64,000 nt of DNA from Clostridiales bacterium (GCA_029907205.1 JARYMI010000010.1:16097-80096); one strand, 5' to 3'; shown: positions 43,043 to 50,615, counted from the stretch's first letter. The notes: generated by a model not told the origin, from the sequence alone. A program made the numbers and translations.

Positions 43043-43134
43043 TCCCCGCAACGCCTGCAGCGTAAGGGAGTTCCCCACGGGGGGATGGACGGAGCGAGGA
43101 CGGACGGAAACGCGCCATGACAGGACCCGTTCTC
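43043..43134 (+). repeat. Degenerate, 5'-truncated copy (copy A) of the ~117-bp MITE-like repeat.
   Basis: ...cagcgtaagggagttccccacggggggatggacggagcgaggacggacggaaacgcgccatgacaggacccgttctc aligns to copies B and C over about 90 bp. It lies in an intergenic region between convergent genes. Confidence 0.7.
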
Positions 43135-43166
43135 AGCGTCTTGGGGCTTCGACCCCAAACCCGAGC

Positions 43167-44414
43167 CTATTCATAACGGAGGGAGACGATCGGGTCGACC
43201 CGCGCGGCTTTCCGGGCCGGGAAAATCCCGAAGAAGAGTCCCACTGAAACCGAGACGACAAGCCCAAGGATGACGGACCAGGACGTCACCGAAGCGGGCA
43301 GGGGAGTGGCGGCCTTGACGAGGAAGGCGATGGTAAACCCGATGATGATTCCCAGGATGCCTCCCGTTCCAGTGAGAAAGACGGCCTCTATCAGAAACTG
43401 CTTGAGGATGTCGGCCGAACGGGCGCCGATGGCCTTGCGGATGCCGATCTCCCGCGTCCTTTCTTTGACCGAGACTAACATGATGTTCATGACGCCGATC
43501 CCGCCGACGAGCAGGCCGATCGATGAGATGACGATCATCACCAAGTAGGCGGCCCCAGTAATCTGGTTATAGAGGTCGACGATCGTGTCCTGGGTGGACA
43601 CGGCAAAATCGTTTGGCTTGCCGAACCCAACTTTCCGCCTTTTTCTGAGAATATTCGTTATCTCCTCGATGGCCTCCGGGATGGTTCCTTGTTCTTTGGG
43701 AGTGGCGACGACCTCCAGGTTCTCGAGGTCGTAGGGGAAGTATTTCATCAGGGTGGTGATGGGAATGCCGACAAAATTATCCTGGCTTCGTCCTAACATG
43801 CTCCCCCTTTTCTTCAGGACGCCGACGACCACGAACTTTTCCGGGCCTATCCTGATTTCCTTCTCCAGCGGGCTCGTGTGCGGAAAGAGGACCTCGGCCA
43901 GCTCGGCCCCTAAGACGCAGACCTTGGCACTGTGCTTGATGTCGGACTCGCTGAGAAACCTGCCTTTCTCCGGAAGGTAGACGGACAGCACCTGGGGGAA
44001 TTTTTCGTTCATGCCGAGGATGATGGAGTCCTCGCTCTTCGTGTTCTGGTACTTGATCGGGAGGCTCTCGAAGACGTTCACGACAAGGTCAACGGCCACG
44101 GCCTTGATGAGAGAGCCTTCCTGCTCAAGGGCGAGGGCGTCCTCAAAGGTGAGGTTTTTCCTCTGTCTTTCTTCCTCCGAACGTCGGCCGACCTGGATTC
44201 CTGGCTCATACTTGGTAACGATGATGATGTCCGAGCCGACCGATTCGAGCTCCCGGAGAAAAGAGCGGTTAAGACCCTGGATAATCGAGACCATCCCGAT
44301 GACTGTCATAACCCCGATGACGATGCCCAGGACTGTCAGGAAAGACCGAAGCTTATGAGTCTTGAGCGAATCGAAGGCCATGGCCAGGATTTCACCAAGG
44401 ATACCGGGCCTCAT
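43167..44414 (-). CDS. ABC transporter permease, FtsX/MacB-type (4 TM with a large periplasmic domain).
   Basis: N-terminal TM helix, periplasmic MacB_PCD-like region, and C-terminal FtsX domain (…VGGIGVMNIMLVSVKERTREIGIRKAIGA…). Confidence 0.8.
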   Translation of the reverse strand: MRPGILGEILAMAFDSLKTHKLRSFLTVLGIVIGVMTVIGMVSIIQGLNRSFLRELESVGSDIIIVTKYEPGIQVGRRSEEERQRKNLTFEDALALEQEGSLIKAVAVDLVVNVFESLPIKYQNTKSEDSIILGMNEKFPQVLSVYLPEKGRFLSESDIKHSAKVCVLGAELAEVLFPHTSPLEKEIRIGPEKFVVVGVLKKRGSMLGRSQDNFVGIPITTLMKYFPYDLENLEVVATPKEQGTIPEAIEEITNILRKRRKVGFGKPNDFAVSTQDTIVDLYNQITGAAYLVMIVISSIGLLVGGIGVMNIMLVSVKERTREIGIRKAIGARSADILKQFLIEAVFLTGTGGILGIIIGFTIAFLVKAATPLPASVTSWSVILGLVVSVSVGLFFGIFPARKAARVDPIVSLRYE

Positions 44415-47939: not shown

Positions 47940-50375
47940 TTACGGCTCTTTTTCTTGGGCCGCAGCGTAGGTTTTCCAGCTTGCGGCCAGCCGCTGGAGT
48001 TCCTGGTCGACAAGGAAGTTCACCGTTCCTTCCTCAAAAGTCCCGTCCTCTTTGAGATTCCCGGCTTCGATTCCTGTCAGGATTTCGATGCCTTCGTCAA
48101 TTGTCTTGATCGGGTAAATATGGAACTTGCCCTGCCTGACAGCTTCGACAACGTCGCTGCGCAGCATCAGGTTCTGGATGTTCTGATGAGGGATGATGAC
48201 GCCTTGGGTTCCTGTCAGGCCTTTTGCCTTGCAGACATCATAAAAACCTTCAATTTTCTCGTTCACTCCTCCGATGGGCTGGATTTCGCCTTTCTGGTTG
48301 ATCGAACCCGTGACGGCAATGTCCTGCCTCAGCGGCAGCTTAGAAAGGCTGGACAGGATGGCGTAAACCTCAGTGGACGAGGCGCTGTCGCCGTCAATTC
48401 CCGAGTAGGACTGCTCAAAGGCAAGGCTGGCCGACAGGGAAAAAGGTTTGTTCTGGGCGTACTTCCCTCTGAGATAGCCGCCCAGGATGAGGACGCCTTT
48501 GTTATGGGTCCGGCCGCTCAAGTCCGCTTCCCGTTCGATGTTGATAACCCCGGCTCTGCCGACCGAGGTTTTGGCTGTGATCCGGGTCGGCTTGCCGAAG
48601 GAAAACTGGCCCATGTCATAGATGGACAGGCCGTTAACCTGGCCGATGACTTTTCCTTCTGTGTCGATCAGGATTGTCCCTTCCTCAATGAGTTCCTGAA
48701 TTTTATCTTCGATCAGGCTGACCCGCTCGAAACGCTCCAGCACGGCCTTTTCCACGTGCTTGCGGCTTACCGTCGTTTTGCCGTCTGATTTTGCCCAGTA
48801 GTTAGCTTCGCGGATGACATCGGCCAGGATGTGGAACCTGGTGGAGACTTTTCGCTGCCGGCCGGCGATCCTCGTTGCGTACTCAATAACCGCCGCTATG
48901 CCCTCTTGGTCAAAAGGAAACAGTTTGTCATCCTCGCAGATTTTCTTGATGAAACGAGCATAATCCTGGATGGCTCCGTCGTCCCTGGTCATCTCGGAAT
49001 CGAACTCGGCTTTGATCTTGAAGATCTTCTTGAAGTCCTCGTCCATGAAATAGAGGAGGTTATAGATGTAAGCATCGCCGATCATGACCACTTTGACGTT
49101 GCATTTAATCGGCTGAGGCTTGAGCCGGGTGGTCGCGATGAGATAAAGGGAAAGGTAGTTCTGGATTTCGAATATCTGATGGCGGAGTGTCCTTTTCAGG
49201 GTGATCCAGACGCCTGGCTCGATCAGCGCGTCCAGAGCGTTAATGACCAGGTAGCCGCCGTTAGCCTTGAGAAAGGAGCCTGTCTTGATCTGAGTGAAAT
49301 CTGTCTGCCAGACTCCCCAGCGGCTGACAGCGGACTCGATCGTCCCGAAGAGGTTGACGTACGTCGGGTTTGTCTCCATGACCACGGGCGCTCCCTTGAC
49401 ATCGGAGTTGTCGACCAGGAGGTTGACCCTGTACGCTAAGAAGGCATCGACCATCTCCCTTGTTTTGTCCTCTTTTTCCTCTTTTTTTTGGGCTTTGAAG
49501 AGGTCTATGCTTGAGATCAGGTTTTCCTCGACGTTGTCAAGGTATTGGGAGGTAGCCGGCTGGGCAAACTTCTCTCGGATGCCGGAGATGCTCCCTTTGA
49601 TGATCGGGGTGATGGCCTCAGCGTCCCAGTTCTTGAGAAGAGCCCGCGTCTCTTCGTCGATCTCTTTCAGCCTGTCGAAGAGCCTCTCCAGCTCTTCTGT
49701 CAGCTCTTCATATTTCTTCTTGAGTTCCTCCAAGTCCTTCTGGGAAAACTTCTTTTCTTTGACCATGGCCTCGAGCTTTGGGAAAGGCGTCGGGGTTTCT
49801 TCGATGACGGGAATGAGGTCGGGCTTGGTGAACAGCCCCATCTGAACCTGGATCACGGAAAACCCCTGCTTGGCCACGTCATCTTCGAATTTCTGAAGGA
49901 TATCTTTTTGCTTTTTCTGCTGGCTCTCGATGATGGCTTCTTTCTTTTCTGTGTAGTACTTGCTCTTGAGGAGCTCAGGGATGTTGACTTTGAGCATCTC
50001 GATCAGGTTTTCCATGGCTTCCTTGAACAGCTTGCCCTTTCCGCCGGGAAGCATGATCAGGCTGGGTTCATCTGGGTTCTTGAAGTTGTTGACATAAAGG
50101 ATGTCGTCGGGCGTTTTTTCGCCCTTTTCGAGTTTTTCCAGGAGCTGCTTGATGGTCGTCGTCCGTCCTGTTCCGACCATCCCGGTGATGAAAATGTTGT
50201 AACCAAGGCTCTTTATATCAAGCCCAGTCTGGATGGCCTTGAGAGCTCTTTCCTGGCCGATGATTTCAGCGCACGGTTCGCATTCGTCTGTGGTGGCGAA
50301 AGGAATCGTCTTGGGGTCTATCCTCCAGCGCAACATGTCCGGCGCCAGCTCTTCGAATTGCGTTTTTGTTTTCAT
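47940..50375 (-). CDS. Lon-related ATP-dependent protease (AAA+ module split by a long helical insertion, plus a C-terminal S16 Lon protease domain).
   Basis: Walker A GMVGTGRTT (~aa 65) and Walker B GGYLVINALD (~aa 370), separated by a coiled-coil-rich insertion. C-terminal Lon_C with catalytic Ser in GIDGDSASSTEVYAIL and Lys in …GVNEKIEGF…. 811 aa. Confidence 0.8.
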   Translation of the reverse strand: MKTKTQFEELAPDMLRWRIDPKTIPFATTDECEPCAEIIGQERALKAIQTGLDIKSLGYNIFITGMVGTGRTTTIKQLLEKLEKGEKTPDDILYVNNFKNPDEPSLIMLPGGKGKLFKEAMENLIEMLKVNIPELLKSKYYTEKKEAIIESQQKKQKDILQKFEDDVAKQGFSVIQVQMGLFTKPDLIPVIEETPTPFPKLEAMVKEKKFSQKDLEELKKKYEELTEELERLFDRLKEIDEETRALLKNWDAEAITPIIKGSISGIREKFAQPATSQYLDNVEENLISSIDLFKAQKKEEKEDKTREMVDAFLAYRVNLLVDNSDVKGAPVVMETNPTYVNLFGTIESAVSRWGVWQTDFTQIKTGSFLKANGGYLVINALDALIEPGVWITLKRTLRHQIFEIQNYLSLYLIATTRLKPQPIKCNVKVVMIGDAYIYNLLYFMDEDFKKIFKIKAEFDSEMTRDDGAIQDYARFIKKICEDDKLFPFDQEGIAAVIEYATRIAGRQRKVSTRFHILADVIREANYWAKSDGKTTVSRKHVEKAVLERFERVSLIEDKIQELIEEGTILIDTEGKVIGQVNGLSIYDMGQFSFGKPTRITAKTSVGRAGVINIEREADLSGRTHNKGVLILGGYLRGKYAQNKPFSLSASLAFEQSYSGIDGDSASSTEVYAILSSLSKLPLRQDIAVTGSINQKGEIQPIGGVNEKIEGFYDVCKAKGLTGTQGVIIPHQNIQNLMLRSDVVEAVRQGKFHIYPIKTIDEGIEILTGIEAGNLKEDGTFEEGTVNFLVDQELQRLAASWKTYAAAQEKEP

Positions 50376-50498
50376 CGAAAAACTCCTTGTGGATGTCTTG
50401 ATGAGAGGTGTATTTCGTTATTACCATAAAATGCGGCCGGAGACAAGCTCGGCGGTCAGTCCGAATGCATCTCCAATTTCGTGACAAAGCTTGGGTCT

Positions 50499-50615
50499 GA
50501 AAGAACGGGTCCTGTCACGGCGCGTCCCCTTCCGTCCTCGCTCCACCCATCCCCCCGTGGGGAACCCCTTACGCTGCGGGCGGGATGGGACTAACGCCGT
50601 GCCACCCACTCTTTC
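50499..50615 (-). repeat. MITE-like repeat copy C (inverted relative to copy B).
   Basis: The reverse complement of 50499-50615 matches copy B at about 112 of 117 positions. It is followed on the plus strand by aattatcacggaattagagatgc, which matches copy B's 3' flank in the same orientation. Confidence 0.8.

Follow-up and report, generated by a model that had tools for sequence, protein, structure and literature searches.

Correia elements (CREE/NEMIS) of Neisseria are non-coding MITEs (miniature inverted-repeat transposable elements) of approximately 100–155 bp with terminal inverted repeats (TIRs) of approximately 26 bp, which are located in intergenic regions in both orientations and whose transcripts form long hairpins that affect mRNA processing and termination. 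To our knowledge, Correia elements are confined to one genus, and we know of no transposase identified for them. The enterobacterial repetitive intergenic consensus sequences (ERIC; also intergenic repeat units, IRU) are imperfect palindromes of approximately 127 bp, which occur in transcribed intergenic regions of enterobacteria in either orientation and combine a conserved core with variable internal insertions; as far as we know, they are family-restricted and have no documented target-site duplication (TSD) or TIR–transposase signature. Likewise, we know of no TIR/TSD signature for REPINs, whose building unit is the repetitive extragenic palindrome (REP). Bacterial MITEs normally belong to a single genus, and their interiors are usually treated as filler. 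In a census of prokaryotic MITEs (PMC11602168), 98.2% of the clusters formed at 95% identity did not extend beyond one genus. The present analysis concerns a repeat found in a 64,000-nucleotide stretch of DNA from a Clostridiales bacterium (GCA_029907205.1, JARYMI010000010.1:16097-80096; hereafter the window, that is, the whole stretch analyzed, with positions counted from its first letter). It was concluded that the copies in the window belong to a MITE superfamily defined by a structured core shared between phyla; with a probability of roughly three in four, they are non-coding MITEs of approximately 190 bp with a conserved folded interior module that has been kept by selection on the element lineage.

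Repeat finding in the window revealed a 117-nt inverted pair with 96% complementarity, namely, copy B (47785–47901) and copy C (50499–50615), as well as a related copy A (43067–43133), which had an identity of 87% to B and 90% to C. The repeat family proposed in a preliminary description of this DNA was thus real, and the GAAAGAG(T/C)GGGT and ACCCG(C/T)TCTTTC ends and the plus-strand flank motif reported there were present as well. Two covariance models, R1 and R2, were built from related copies (related loci collected from other genomes and metagenomes are designated below by L numbers). With R1, copies C, B and A scored 125.6 bits (E-value = 1e-30), 121.7 bits and 64 bits, respectively, and with R2, copies C and B scored 86 and 83.1 bits. 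According to these scores, the structured core of copy C, comprising helices P1 and P2, the conserved boxes and an apical domain designated type 1, was placed at 50500–50615 on the minus strand, and that of copy B, considering also its 96% identity to C, at 47785–47900 on the plus strand.

The full-length element was recognized at copy C, where the TIRs and the TSD set its ends at 50463–50653 (191 bp, minus strand); the whole copy was predicted to fold as one end-to-end hairpin (−93.6 kcal/mol). Its outer TIRs, identified by pattern match and comparison of the arms, were GAATGCATCTCCAATTTCGTGACAA at the low-coordinate end (50463–50487, plus strand) and CGAAGCATCTCTAATTCCGTGATAA, read on the minus strand, at the high-coordinate end (50629–50653); by our own count, 19 of the 25 positions matched between the former and the reverse complement of the latter. 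The flank motif of approximately 21 nt, for which three matches were found in the window versus 0.01 expected by chance, flanked copy C to the left and to the right as an inverted pair (GCATCTCCAATTTCGTGACAA at 50467–50487 and the reverse complement of GCATCTCTAATTCCGTGATAA at 50629–50649) and is, therefore, the outer TIR of a longer element. In the preliminary description, the motif contained in the high-coordinate TIR had been taken for a 3′ flank conserved in one orientation only, which did not hold; since the TIR stands on both sides, the motif is found after the core in both possible orientations, and no flip is needed. The longer unit suggested there was found in the form of the 191-bp element, but a core flipping as an invertible segment is not needed, given the TIR on both sides, and no recurrent recombinase or other recurrent neighbor gene was found. 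Similarly, inverted termini do exist, but the 12-bp GAAAGAGYGGGT ends regarded as TIRs proved to be the basal helix P1, the true TIRs being the 25-bp outer repeats.

Immediately outside the TIRs of copy C were the 9-mers GGTCAGTCC (50454–50462) and GGCCAGTCC (50654–50662), the left and right TSD, which matched at eight of nine positions. In the Aminicenantes-type subfamily, which includes the window copies, the element ends had the form NNN-AGCATC...GATGCT-NNN, the terminus NNNAGCATC..TTCCGTGAT was recurrent, and the TIR consensus, read from the tip inward, was GGAAGCATCTCC..TTCCGTGAT (approximately 25 bp). The TSD was assessed by a script with a fixed geometry (9-mer, 3-nt tip and AGCATC, with no more than one mismatch allowed) in the 28 copies that had both termini, and the controls were 347 mismatched pairings, in which the left and right flanks came from different copies. 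The flanking 9-mers matched in 11 of the 28 copies (7 perfect and 4 with one mismatch) and in 0 of the 347 controls; perfect 9-mers included TTGAAAAAG, GTTGCTCTT and ACATGCCTT. The duplicated 9-mers varied among the copies without a consensus, which means that there is no specific target sequence, and insertion into such a sequence, one of the options raised in the preliminary description, was abandoned. TIRs combined with a 9-bp TSD point to mobilization in trans by a candidate DDE-type transposase, which would make 9-bp staggered cuts. A mini-element of approximately 70 nt with two TIR-like ends (..TTTTCTGTGAC ... ATCACGGAAAAGGAGATGC) and no core was observed in L058 (~6760–6830), indicating that the TIR vehicle is able to exist without the structured module.

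The interior of the element, approximately 100 nt long, ran in order through the first strand of P1, the box GGGUGGC, the first strand of P2, GCCCGCAGC, an exchangeable apical domain and GCGAGGAC, and then back through P2, GACAGGACCC and P1. Helix P2 was variable in sequence and always paired, with 4–6 different Watson–Crick or wobble pair types per position, and P1 also varied and covaried between copies. A single long hairpin with compensatory pairs was obtained with RNAalifold for 51 copies. Covariation was then quantified in set A3 (101 model-aligned copies from genomes) and in set A7 (104 independent metagenome copies). In A3, 94.1% of the cells were paired, and 273 double-change cells were counted versus a shuffled mean of 64 (slid controls 23–61); in A7, 93.2% of the cells were paired, with 422 double-change cells versus a shuffled mean of 113 (slid controls 7–118). 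None of the 500 shuffles reached the observed value in either set, although it should be noted that these shuffle statistics are inflated by kinship between copies. Covariation of the kind expected for a structured RNA was thus found in alignments partly fitted to the model. The structured-RNA-like reading, likewise put forward in the preliminary description, gained support from the strong covariation in A3 and A7.

Single copies were consistent with the proposed pairing: in L076, the GCCCGC/GCGAGGAC pairing is supported in its register by a C-to-G change whose partner has changed from G to C, and a change of C.G to U.A in L113, detected by eye, supports a small CCC-RCNG-GGG hairpin within the type-1 domain. 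Internal loops were conserved and asymmetric, with GGC opposite GACAGG and GCCCGCAGC opposite GCGAGGAC, and such asymmetric conserved parts are not explained simply by homogenization of a palindrome. Position-specific counts gave 130 G.U versus 34 A.C pairs, and in 116 of 150 copies, the sense strand had the greater stability, which provides moderate evidence that one strand is the folded one. The indels between copies were not multiples of three, no conserved open reading frame (ORF) was found, and the cores ranged from 90 to 200 nt; such frame-breaking indels indicate that the element is not coding.

The interior is thus a conserved, covarying and asymmetric secondary structure that matches no Rfam family. 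When Rfam 15 was applied at gathering score, the window yielded two tRNAs and nothing else; only noise was obtained at 47700–48000 with E-values up to 10, and nothing in 28 related loci spanning all apical types. Full-text literature searches for strings from the core sequence and for MITEs or RNA motifs reported from these phyla yielded no description of the family. The family therefore appears undescribed, as had been supposed. Resemblances noticed by eye to the signal recognition particle (SRP)/4.5S RNA (CCCGCAACGC, ..CAGG.CCC) and to the P4 strand of RNase P served as leads only and are not claimed, with neither Rfam nor a consistent register in their support; the same applies to hepatitis delta virus (HDV)-like and twister-sister ribozymes, type I-E CRISPR repeat hairpins and IS1/IS10 ends.

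Relatives were searched for in genomes, one per species, using an exact pattern with 27 specified core bases, and in metagenome contigs, where only three scaffold boxes were required (GGGTGGC, GCGAGGAC and GACAGGNCCC). The genome scan returned 85 loci, with several copies per genome on different contigs, and their metagenome-assembled genomes (MAGs) were labeled Aminicenantes/Saccharicenans, Nitrospirae/Nitrospira, Omnitrophota, Rokubacteria, Acidobacteriota and "uncultured Eubacteriales". By assembly prefix, the exact 27-mer was found in 11 copies in Aminicenantes bin_1, in 9 copies in Saccharicenans Yes71-14, in 5 copies in an Omnitrophota MAG and in 3–4 copies in each of three Nitrospirae MAGs. 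The metagenome contigs contained at least 120 scaffold loci. Hundreds of copies in many genomes were therefore recorded, and the family is not restricted to the copies from which it was first recognized. No matches to the type-1 or the scaffold pattern were found in viral contigs (0), leaving phage carriage without evidence. Among the copies listed, the same boxes were separated by stems that differed in sequence yet were complementary.

At least seven forms of the apical domain between GCCCGCAGC and GCGAGGAC were distinguished; they ranged from a plain hairpin of 13 nt to domains of 27–31 nt that are rich in G and to longer inserts. The window copies carry the type-1 domain GGAAGGGGUUCCCCACGGGGGGAUGGGUGGA, which was near-identical across backgrounds in which the GC content of the flanks ranged, by group, from 51% to 69%. 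Apical insertions of 20–100 nt were found in the Nitrospirae and Omnitrophota copies, and the Nitrospirae copies had a related TIR (TAGCCCTAATCCG...) with TA at both ends. In six of the Nitrospirae loci (L028, L041, L049, L052, L061 and L071), the apical hairpin contained an insertion of 70–100 nt, and the outer TIR was a different one (TAGCCCTAATCCGAAAA/TTTTCGGATCAGGGCTA), with TA on both sides. These ends may reflect duplication of a TA target, in which case the same core would be served by another class of transposase. Thus, the same module seems to travel on different vehicles, which is suggestive but not proven.

In Saccharicenans-type MAGs, cores were observed as tandem pairs (L054, 2821–3228; L078, 3046–3453; L011, 3588–3850; L045, 960–1221; L037, 2689–3049; L006, 1867–2225) with start-to-start periods of approximately 147, 246 or 293 nt, and they shared long conserved 5′ flanks; this suggests that the repeat unit is larger or that arrays arose through insertions nested in or next to one another. 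Tandem arrays with these periods, as well as long multi-copy intergenic hairpins with a strand-specific fold, would also be expected of an element of the REP/REPIN type moved by a REP-associated tyrosine transposase (RAYT, a Y1 HUH transposase) acting on single-stranded hairpins. Such an origin is nevertheless highly improbable: REP/RAYT elements are not known to show 9-bp TSDs and 25-bp TIRs, and the arms do not repeat one REP in inverted form but carry different conserved boxes (GGGUGGC versus GACAGGACCC and GCCCGCAGC versus GCGAGGAC). The criterion for a REP given in PMC3733652 is a GTAG or CGTC tag at one end, and no such tag was visible at the ends of the present elements. Assignment to a known REP class, which would have spoken against a new family, was accordingly not made.

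The lon locus was collected from eight related genomes via close homologues of the Lon protein. Site B was empty, with the stop codons of lon and rluB 1–20 nt apart, in L210 (93% Lon identity), L211 (92%), L207/L208 (86%), L209 (84%) and L213 (83%), while in L206 (93% Lon identity), what is kept of the element is just its 3′ part, together with a diverged TIR that is orthologous to the right TIR of copy B. At site C, L211 had the same TIRs and flanking 9-mers, with the core center replaced by approximately 185 nt of different sequence; L206 was without the 3′ half of the core, L210 was rearranged, and L213 contained no element. A decayed copy was present at this site in L207/L208 and L209, in the orientation opposite to that in the window, L206 and L211. 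At a fourth locus, L206 held an intact element (7145–7279) whose apical domain was longer and which scored 26 bits (R1) and 36.5 bits (R2); L207 and L209 had none, and in the window, the element was reduced to a 23-nt 5′ fragment, CCCGTCGGGTAGCGCGGTTCGAG (45703–45725, minus strand), recognized by alignment to the L206 element. The syntenic counterpart of copy A was intact in L065 (7150–7266), in agreement with the earlier view that A is 5′-truncated, its 5′ strand having been lost. Consequently, individual copies were gained, broken and lost within a few percent of protein divergence, and such rapid turnover is more readily understood for a selfish element than for a host function tied to the locus. 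Taken together, an element that is shorter than ~300 bp and non-coding and has TIRs, a fixed-length TSD of 9 bp, many dispersed copies and filled and empty sites is a MITE.

In the region ~100–420 of L211, it was further observed that the central boxes and the apical domain had been replaced by unrelated sequence, part of which, TTTC(C/T)TCGCTGGGGAAA, recurs inverted in L207; the hairpin apex seems to be a hot spot for replacement. The 23-nt stump at 45703–45725 lies in the divergent region between the second of two LolE/MacB-type genes and a gene encoding a PK_C-domain protein.

The same loci bear on the possibility of an invertible switch, in which the core flips between its TIRs, or lon flips between B and C, by means of a site-specific recombinase. 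The 117-nt, 96% inverted B/C pair does flank lon, and the orientation of the core differs among relatives at the locus upstream of lon. Meanwhile, lon itself had an identical orientation in all eight relatives, including those without B, no recombinase domain was found among the genes flanking the window copies, and the paradox of the flank motif is explained by a TIR on both sides. Of the flip suggested in the preliminary description, the opposite orientation in L207/L208 and L209 remains, and it is attributable to inversion between the arms or to independent insertion; in L207 and L209, the opposite copies have decayed, and the divergence of their termini is too great for a shared insertion to be demonstrated. 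A switch of either type was therefore judged very unlikely.

According to another explanation, the scaffold is a host-beneficial structured non-coding RNA gene or a cis-regulatory RNA (for example, a protein-binding RNA or a ribozyme) whose function would reside at each locus, and the TIRs and TSDs have merely spread some of its copies. The strong covariation in two datasets, the asymmetric internal loops and boxes conserved across phyla, the excess of G.U over A.C, the nearly identical type-1 domain at 51%–69% GC and the core of copy B, which is 96% identical to that of C despite decayed B arms, would all be expected under this explanation. However, orthologous copies were destroyed, rearranged or absent at 92–93% Lon identity, and such rapid decay argues against a host role at each locus. 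The orientation of the copies relative to neighboring ORFs was even, with 18 sense and 20 antisense cases in tandem arrangement, 23 divergent and 14 convergent (according to crude ORF calls), and no gene association was consistent: ORFs within 1.5–2 kb of 101 and then of 174 copies clustered into unrelated housekeeping families, and no neighbor protein recurred in 205 loci. In addition, no promoter signal was found in the elements, no site resembling an intrinsic terminator (a GC-rich hairpin with a U tract behind it) was found in A, B or C, and the apical domain is replaceable by a plain short hairpin. A host RNA was consequently considered unlikely, though less so than the REP-type element or the switch.

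In the preferred interpretation, that of a MITE with a module kept by selection on the element lineage, the module would persist because only source copies that retain it leave descendants and not because of a host function at each locus. The fold would act on one strand, either as RNA, when transcribed, or as single-stranded DNA. If transcribed, copies B and C would form hairpins of approximately −70 to −94 kcal/mol, and their likeliest local effect would be passive punctuation or stabilization of transcripts, as has been described for ERIC and Correia elements. That the type-1 domain is nearly identical across phyla, as opposed to the freely covarying stems, argues for a real constraint. A further and more tentative proposal, which we regard as possible but doubtful, is that the scaffold is a functional nucleic-acid module of a kind not yet described (for example, an RNA that binds a protein, a ribozyme or a folded element rich in G) and that it rides on different non-autonomous vehicles across at least four phyla. 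The vehicles would be TIR elements with a 9-bp TSD in Aminicenantes, TA-flanked TIR elements in Nitrospirae and bare hairpins in Rokubacteria and Omnitrophota, and the apical domains would be interchangeable, one of them being shared with the hairpin family at 62.7 kb described below.

Several observations weigh against the interpretation as a MITE with a selected module. The 9-bp-TSD vehicle is shown for the Aminicenantes-type subfamily only; in the Rokubacteria and Omnitrophota copies, neither a long TIR nor a 9-bp TSD was seen, only an extension of P1. The approximately 1.3 Mb of collected loci contained no autonomous partner in which these TIRs enclose a transposase gene. In the window, no recognizable TSD was found at copy B, whose left TIR is far more degraded than its core. 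As for the structure, the invariance of the type-1 27-mer in L001–L085 was partly imposed by the search pattern, the A3 and A7 alignments were fitted to the model, and a strand test comparing G.U with A.C in minimum free energy (MFE) folds was confounded by the many G.U pairs that the antisense strand also forms, so that the position-specific counts were used instead. Finally, the copies favored neither orientation with respect to host genes, which speaks against a need for read-through transcription from the host. The same collected loci contained no TIR pairs more than 260 nt apart, and the idea that the apical domain is the deletion scar of an element once split around a transposase gene was rejected, as no such element was found in them.

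Copies A, B and C are all intergenic and lie among ordinary housekeeping genes. Copy C is located between the diverging starts of a lon-like gene (50375, minus strand) and an enoyl-CoA hydratase gene (50739, plus strand), and copy B between the converging ends of a rluB-like gene (ending at 47740) and a gene encoding a Lon-like protease (ending at 47940). The right arm and TIR of copy B, TATTATCATGGAATTAGGGATGCGCG (47902–47927, plus strand), correspond to the first of the supposed 3′ flanks and include a match to the flank-motif pattern with two mismatches at 47904–47924. The left arm (47741–47784, plus strand) is degenerate, with weak similarity to the TIR and spacer of C in the alignment and approximately 11 of 21 TIR positions kept according to a hand count, and the outer arms of B were unpaired in the predicted fold. 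The contrast between the core and the left TIR hints at gene conversion with C or at selection on the core.

The remnant of copy A (43044–43135, plus strand; 64 bits with R1, the 5′ half being unpaired) retains the apical domain and the 3′ strand; the 5′ strands of P1 and P2 are missing at the end of an AlaX-like ORF, and there is no outer TIR. This ORF precedes copy A, and a converging gene encoding a LolE/MacB-type permease follows it. A hairpin, TTGGGGCTTCGACCCCAA, was observed at 43141–43158, directly after copy A and between the converging genes; it is kept in L065 downstream of position 7266 and may be the real bidirectional terminator of that gap. A direct repeat of 125 nt with 81% identity was also observed (43423–43547 and 44670–44794), and it is explained by tandem paralogous LolE/MacB-type permease genes (43167–44414 and 44411–45646, minus strand). 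The genes for tRNA-Arg(CCG) (7682–7757) and tRNA-Lys(CTT) (14014–14088) were the sole RNA genes detected in the window with Rfam and ARAGORN.

A separate GC-rich long hairpin, designated family 2, was located at 62737–62858 on the plus strand (MFE = −89.9 kcal/mol, z = −5.55). The region 62745–62860 had been regarded as a possible diverged fourth relative of the repeats; however, it scored only 19.5 and 18.4 bits with R1 and R2, respectively (E-value = 0.01–0.035), and lacked the central boxes. The motif AGCGGARGGGG..CCCC..GGGGGGA was common to this hairpin and the type-1 apical domain. A homologue was found in the metagenome locus L125 (~1495–1620), in which both the inner hairpin and the outer helix have preserved their complementarity despite sequence differences, and no Rfam match was obtained for the 62.7-kb hairpin. 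It was observed that the family-2 hairpin in L125 lies approximately 100 nt from a copy of the repeat described above. The 62.7-kb hairpin was therefore treated as a second hairpin family, possibly sharing a module with the first, and not as a diverged copy.

The models R1 and R2 would allow annotators to mask or label hundreds of intergenic hairpins in MAGs from sediment and groundwater. If the module is needed for the spread of the element itself, this would indicate that MITE transposition or persistence includes a step that depends on structure; if it is a functional RNA, it would represent a new widespread class that moves horizontally on transposons.

Compared with the described systems, the element resembles Correia and ERIC elements in its behavior, and it shares with Correia elements the state of a small non-coding TIR element with many intergenic copies and long hairpins. 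The two differ in that Correia elements duplicate TA, whereas the present element duplicates 9 bp in the Aminicenantes subfamily and has a covarying interior scaffold with asymmetric loops in several phyla. ERIC elements are not known to have TSDs; TSDs and filled and empty sites were shown for the present element. With REPINs, it shares hairpin-forming intergenic repeats, long-term maintenance and, probably, the importance of single-strand structure, but a REPIN consists of two inverted copies of one REP, whereas the arms of the present element carry different boxes. The element fits the operational MITE definition of the census cited above (PMC11602168), but its scaffold is shared between phyla at a lower overall identity, and since the census clusters were formed at 95% identity, the measures are not directly comparable and the cross-phylum comparison is only indicative. 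In the present element, the interior is the most constrained part, with a covarying scaffold, asymmetric loops and modular apical domains, occurring in at least four phyla and absent from Rfam. In this respect, it is similar to the CORE-SINEs and other superfamilies of animal short interspersed nuclear elements (SINEs), which are non-autonomous and have a conserved central domain and mobilization ends that differ by lineage. SINEs are eukaryotic retroelements made by RNA polymerase III and the machinery of long interspersed nuclear elements (LINEs), whereas the element described here is a bacterial DNA-type element; if the scaffold is indeed a functional module riding on different vehicles, it would be a bacterial counterpart of the conserved core of the animal SINE superfamilies.

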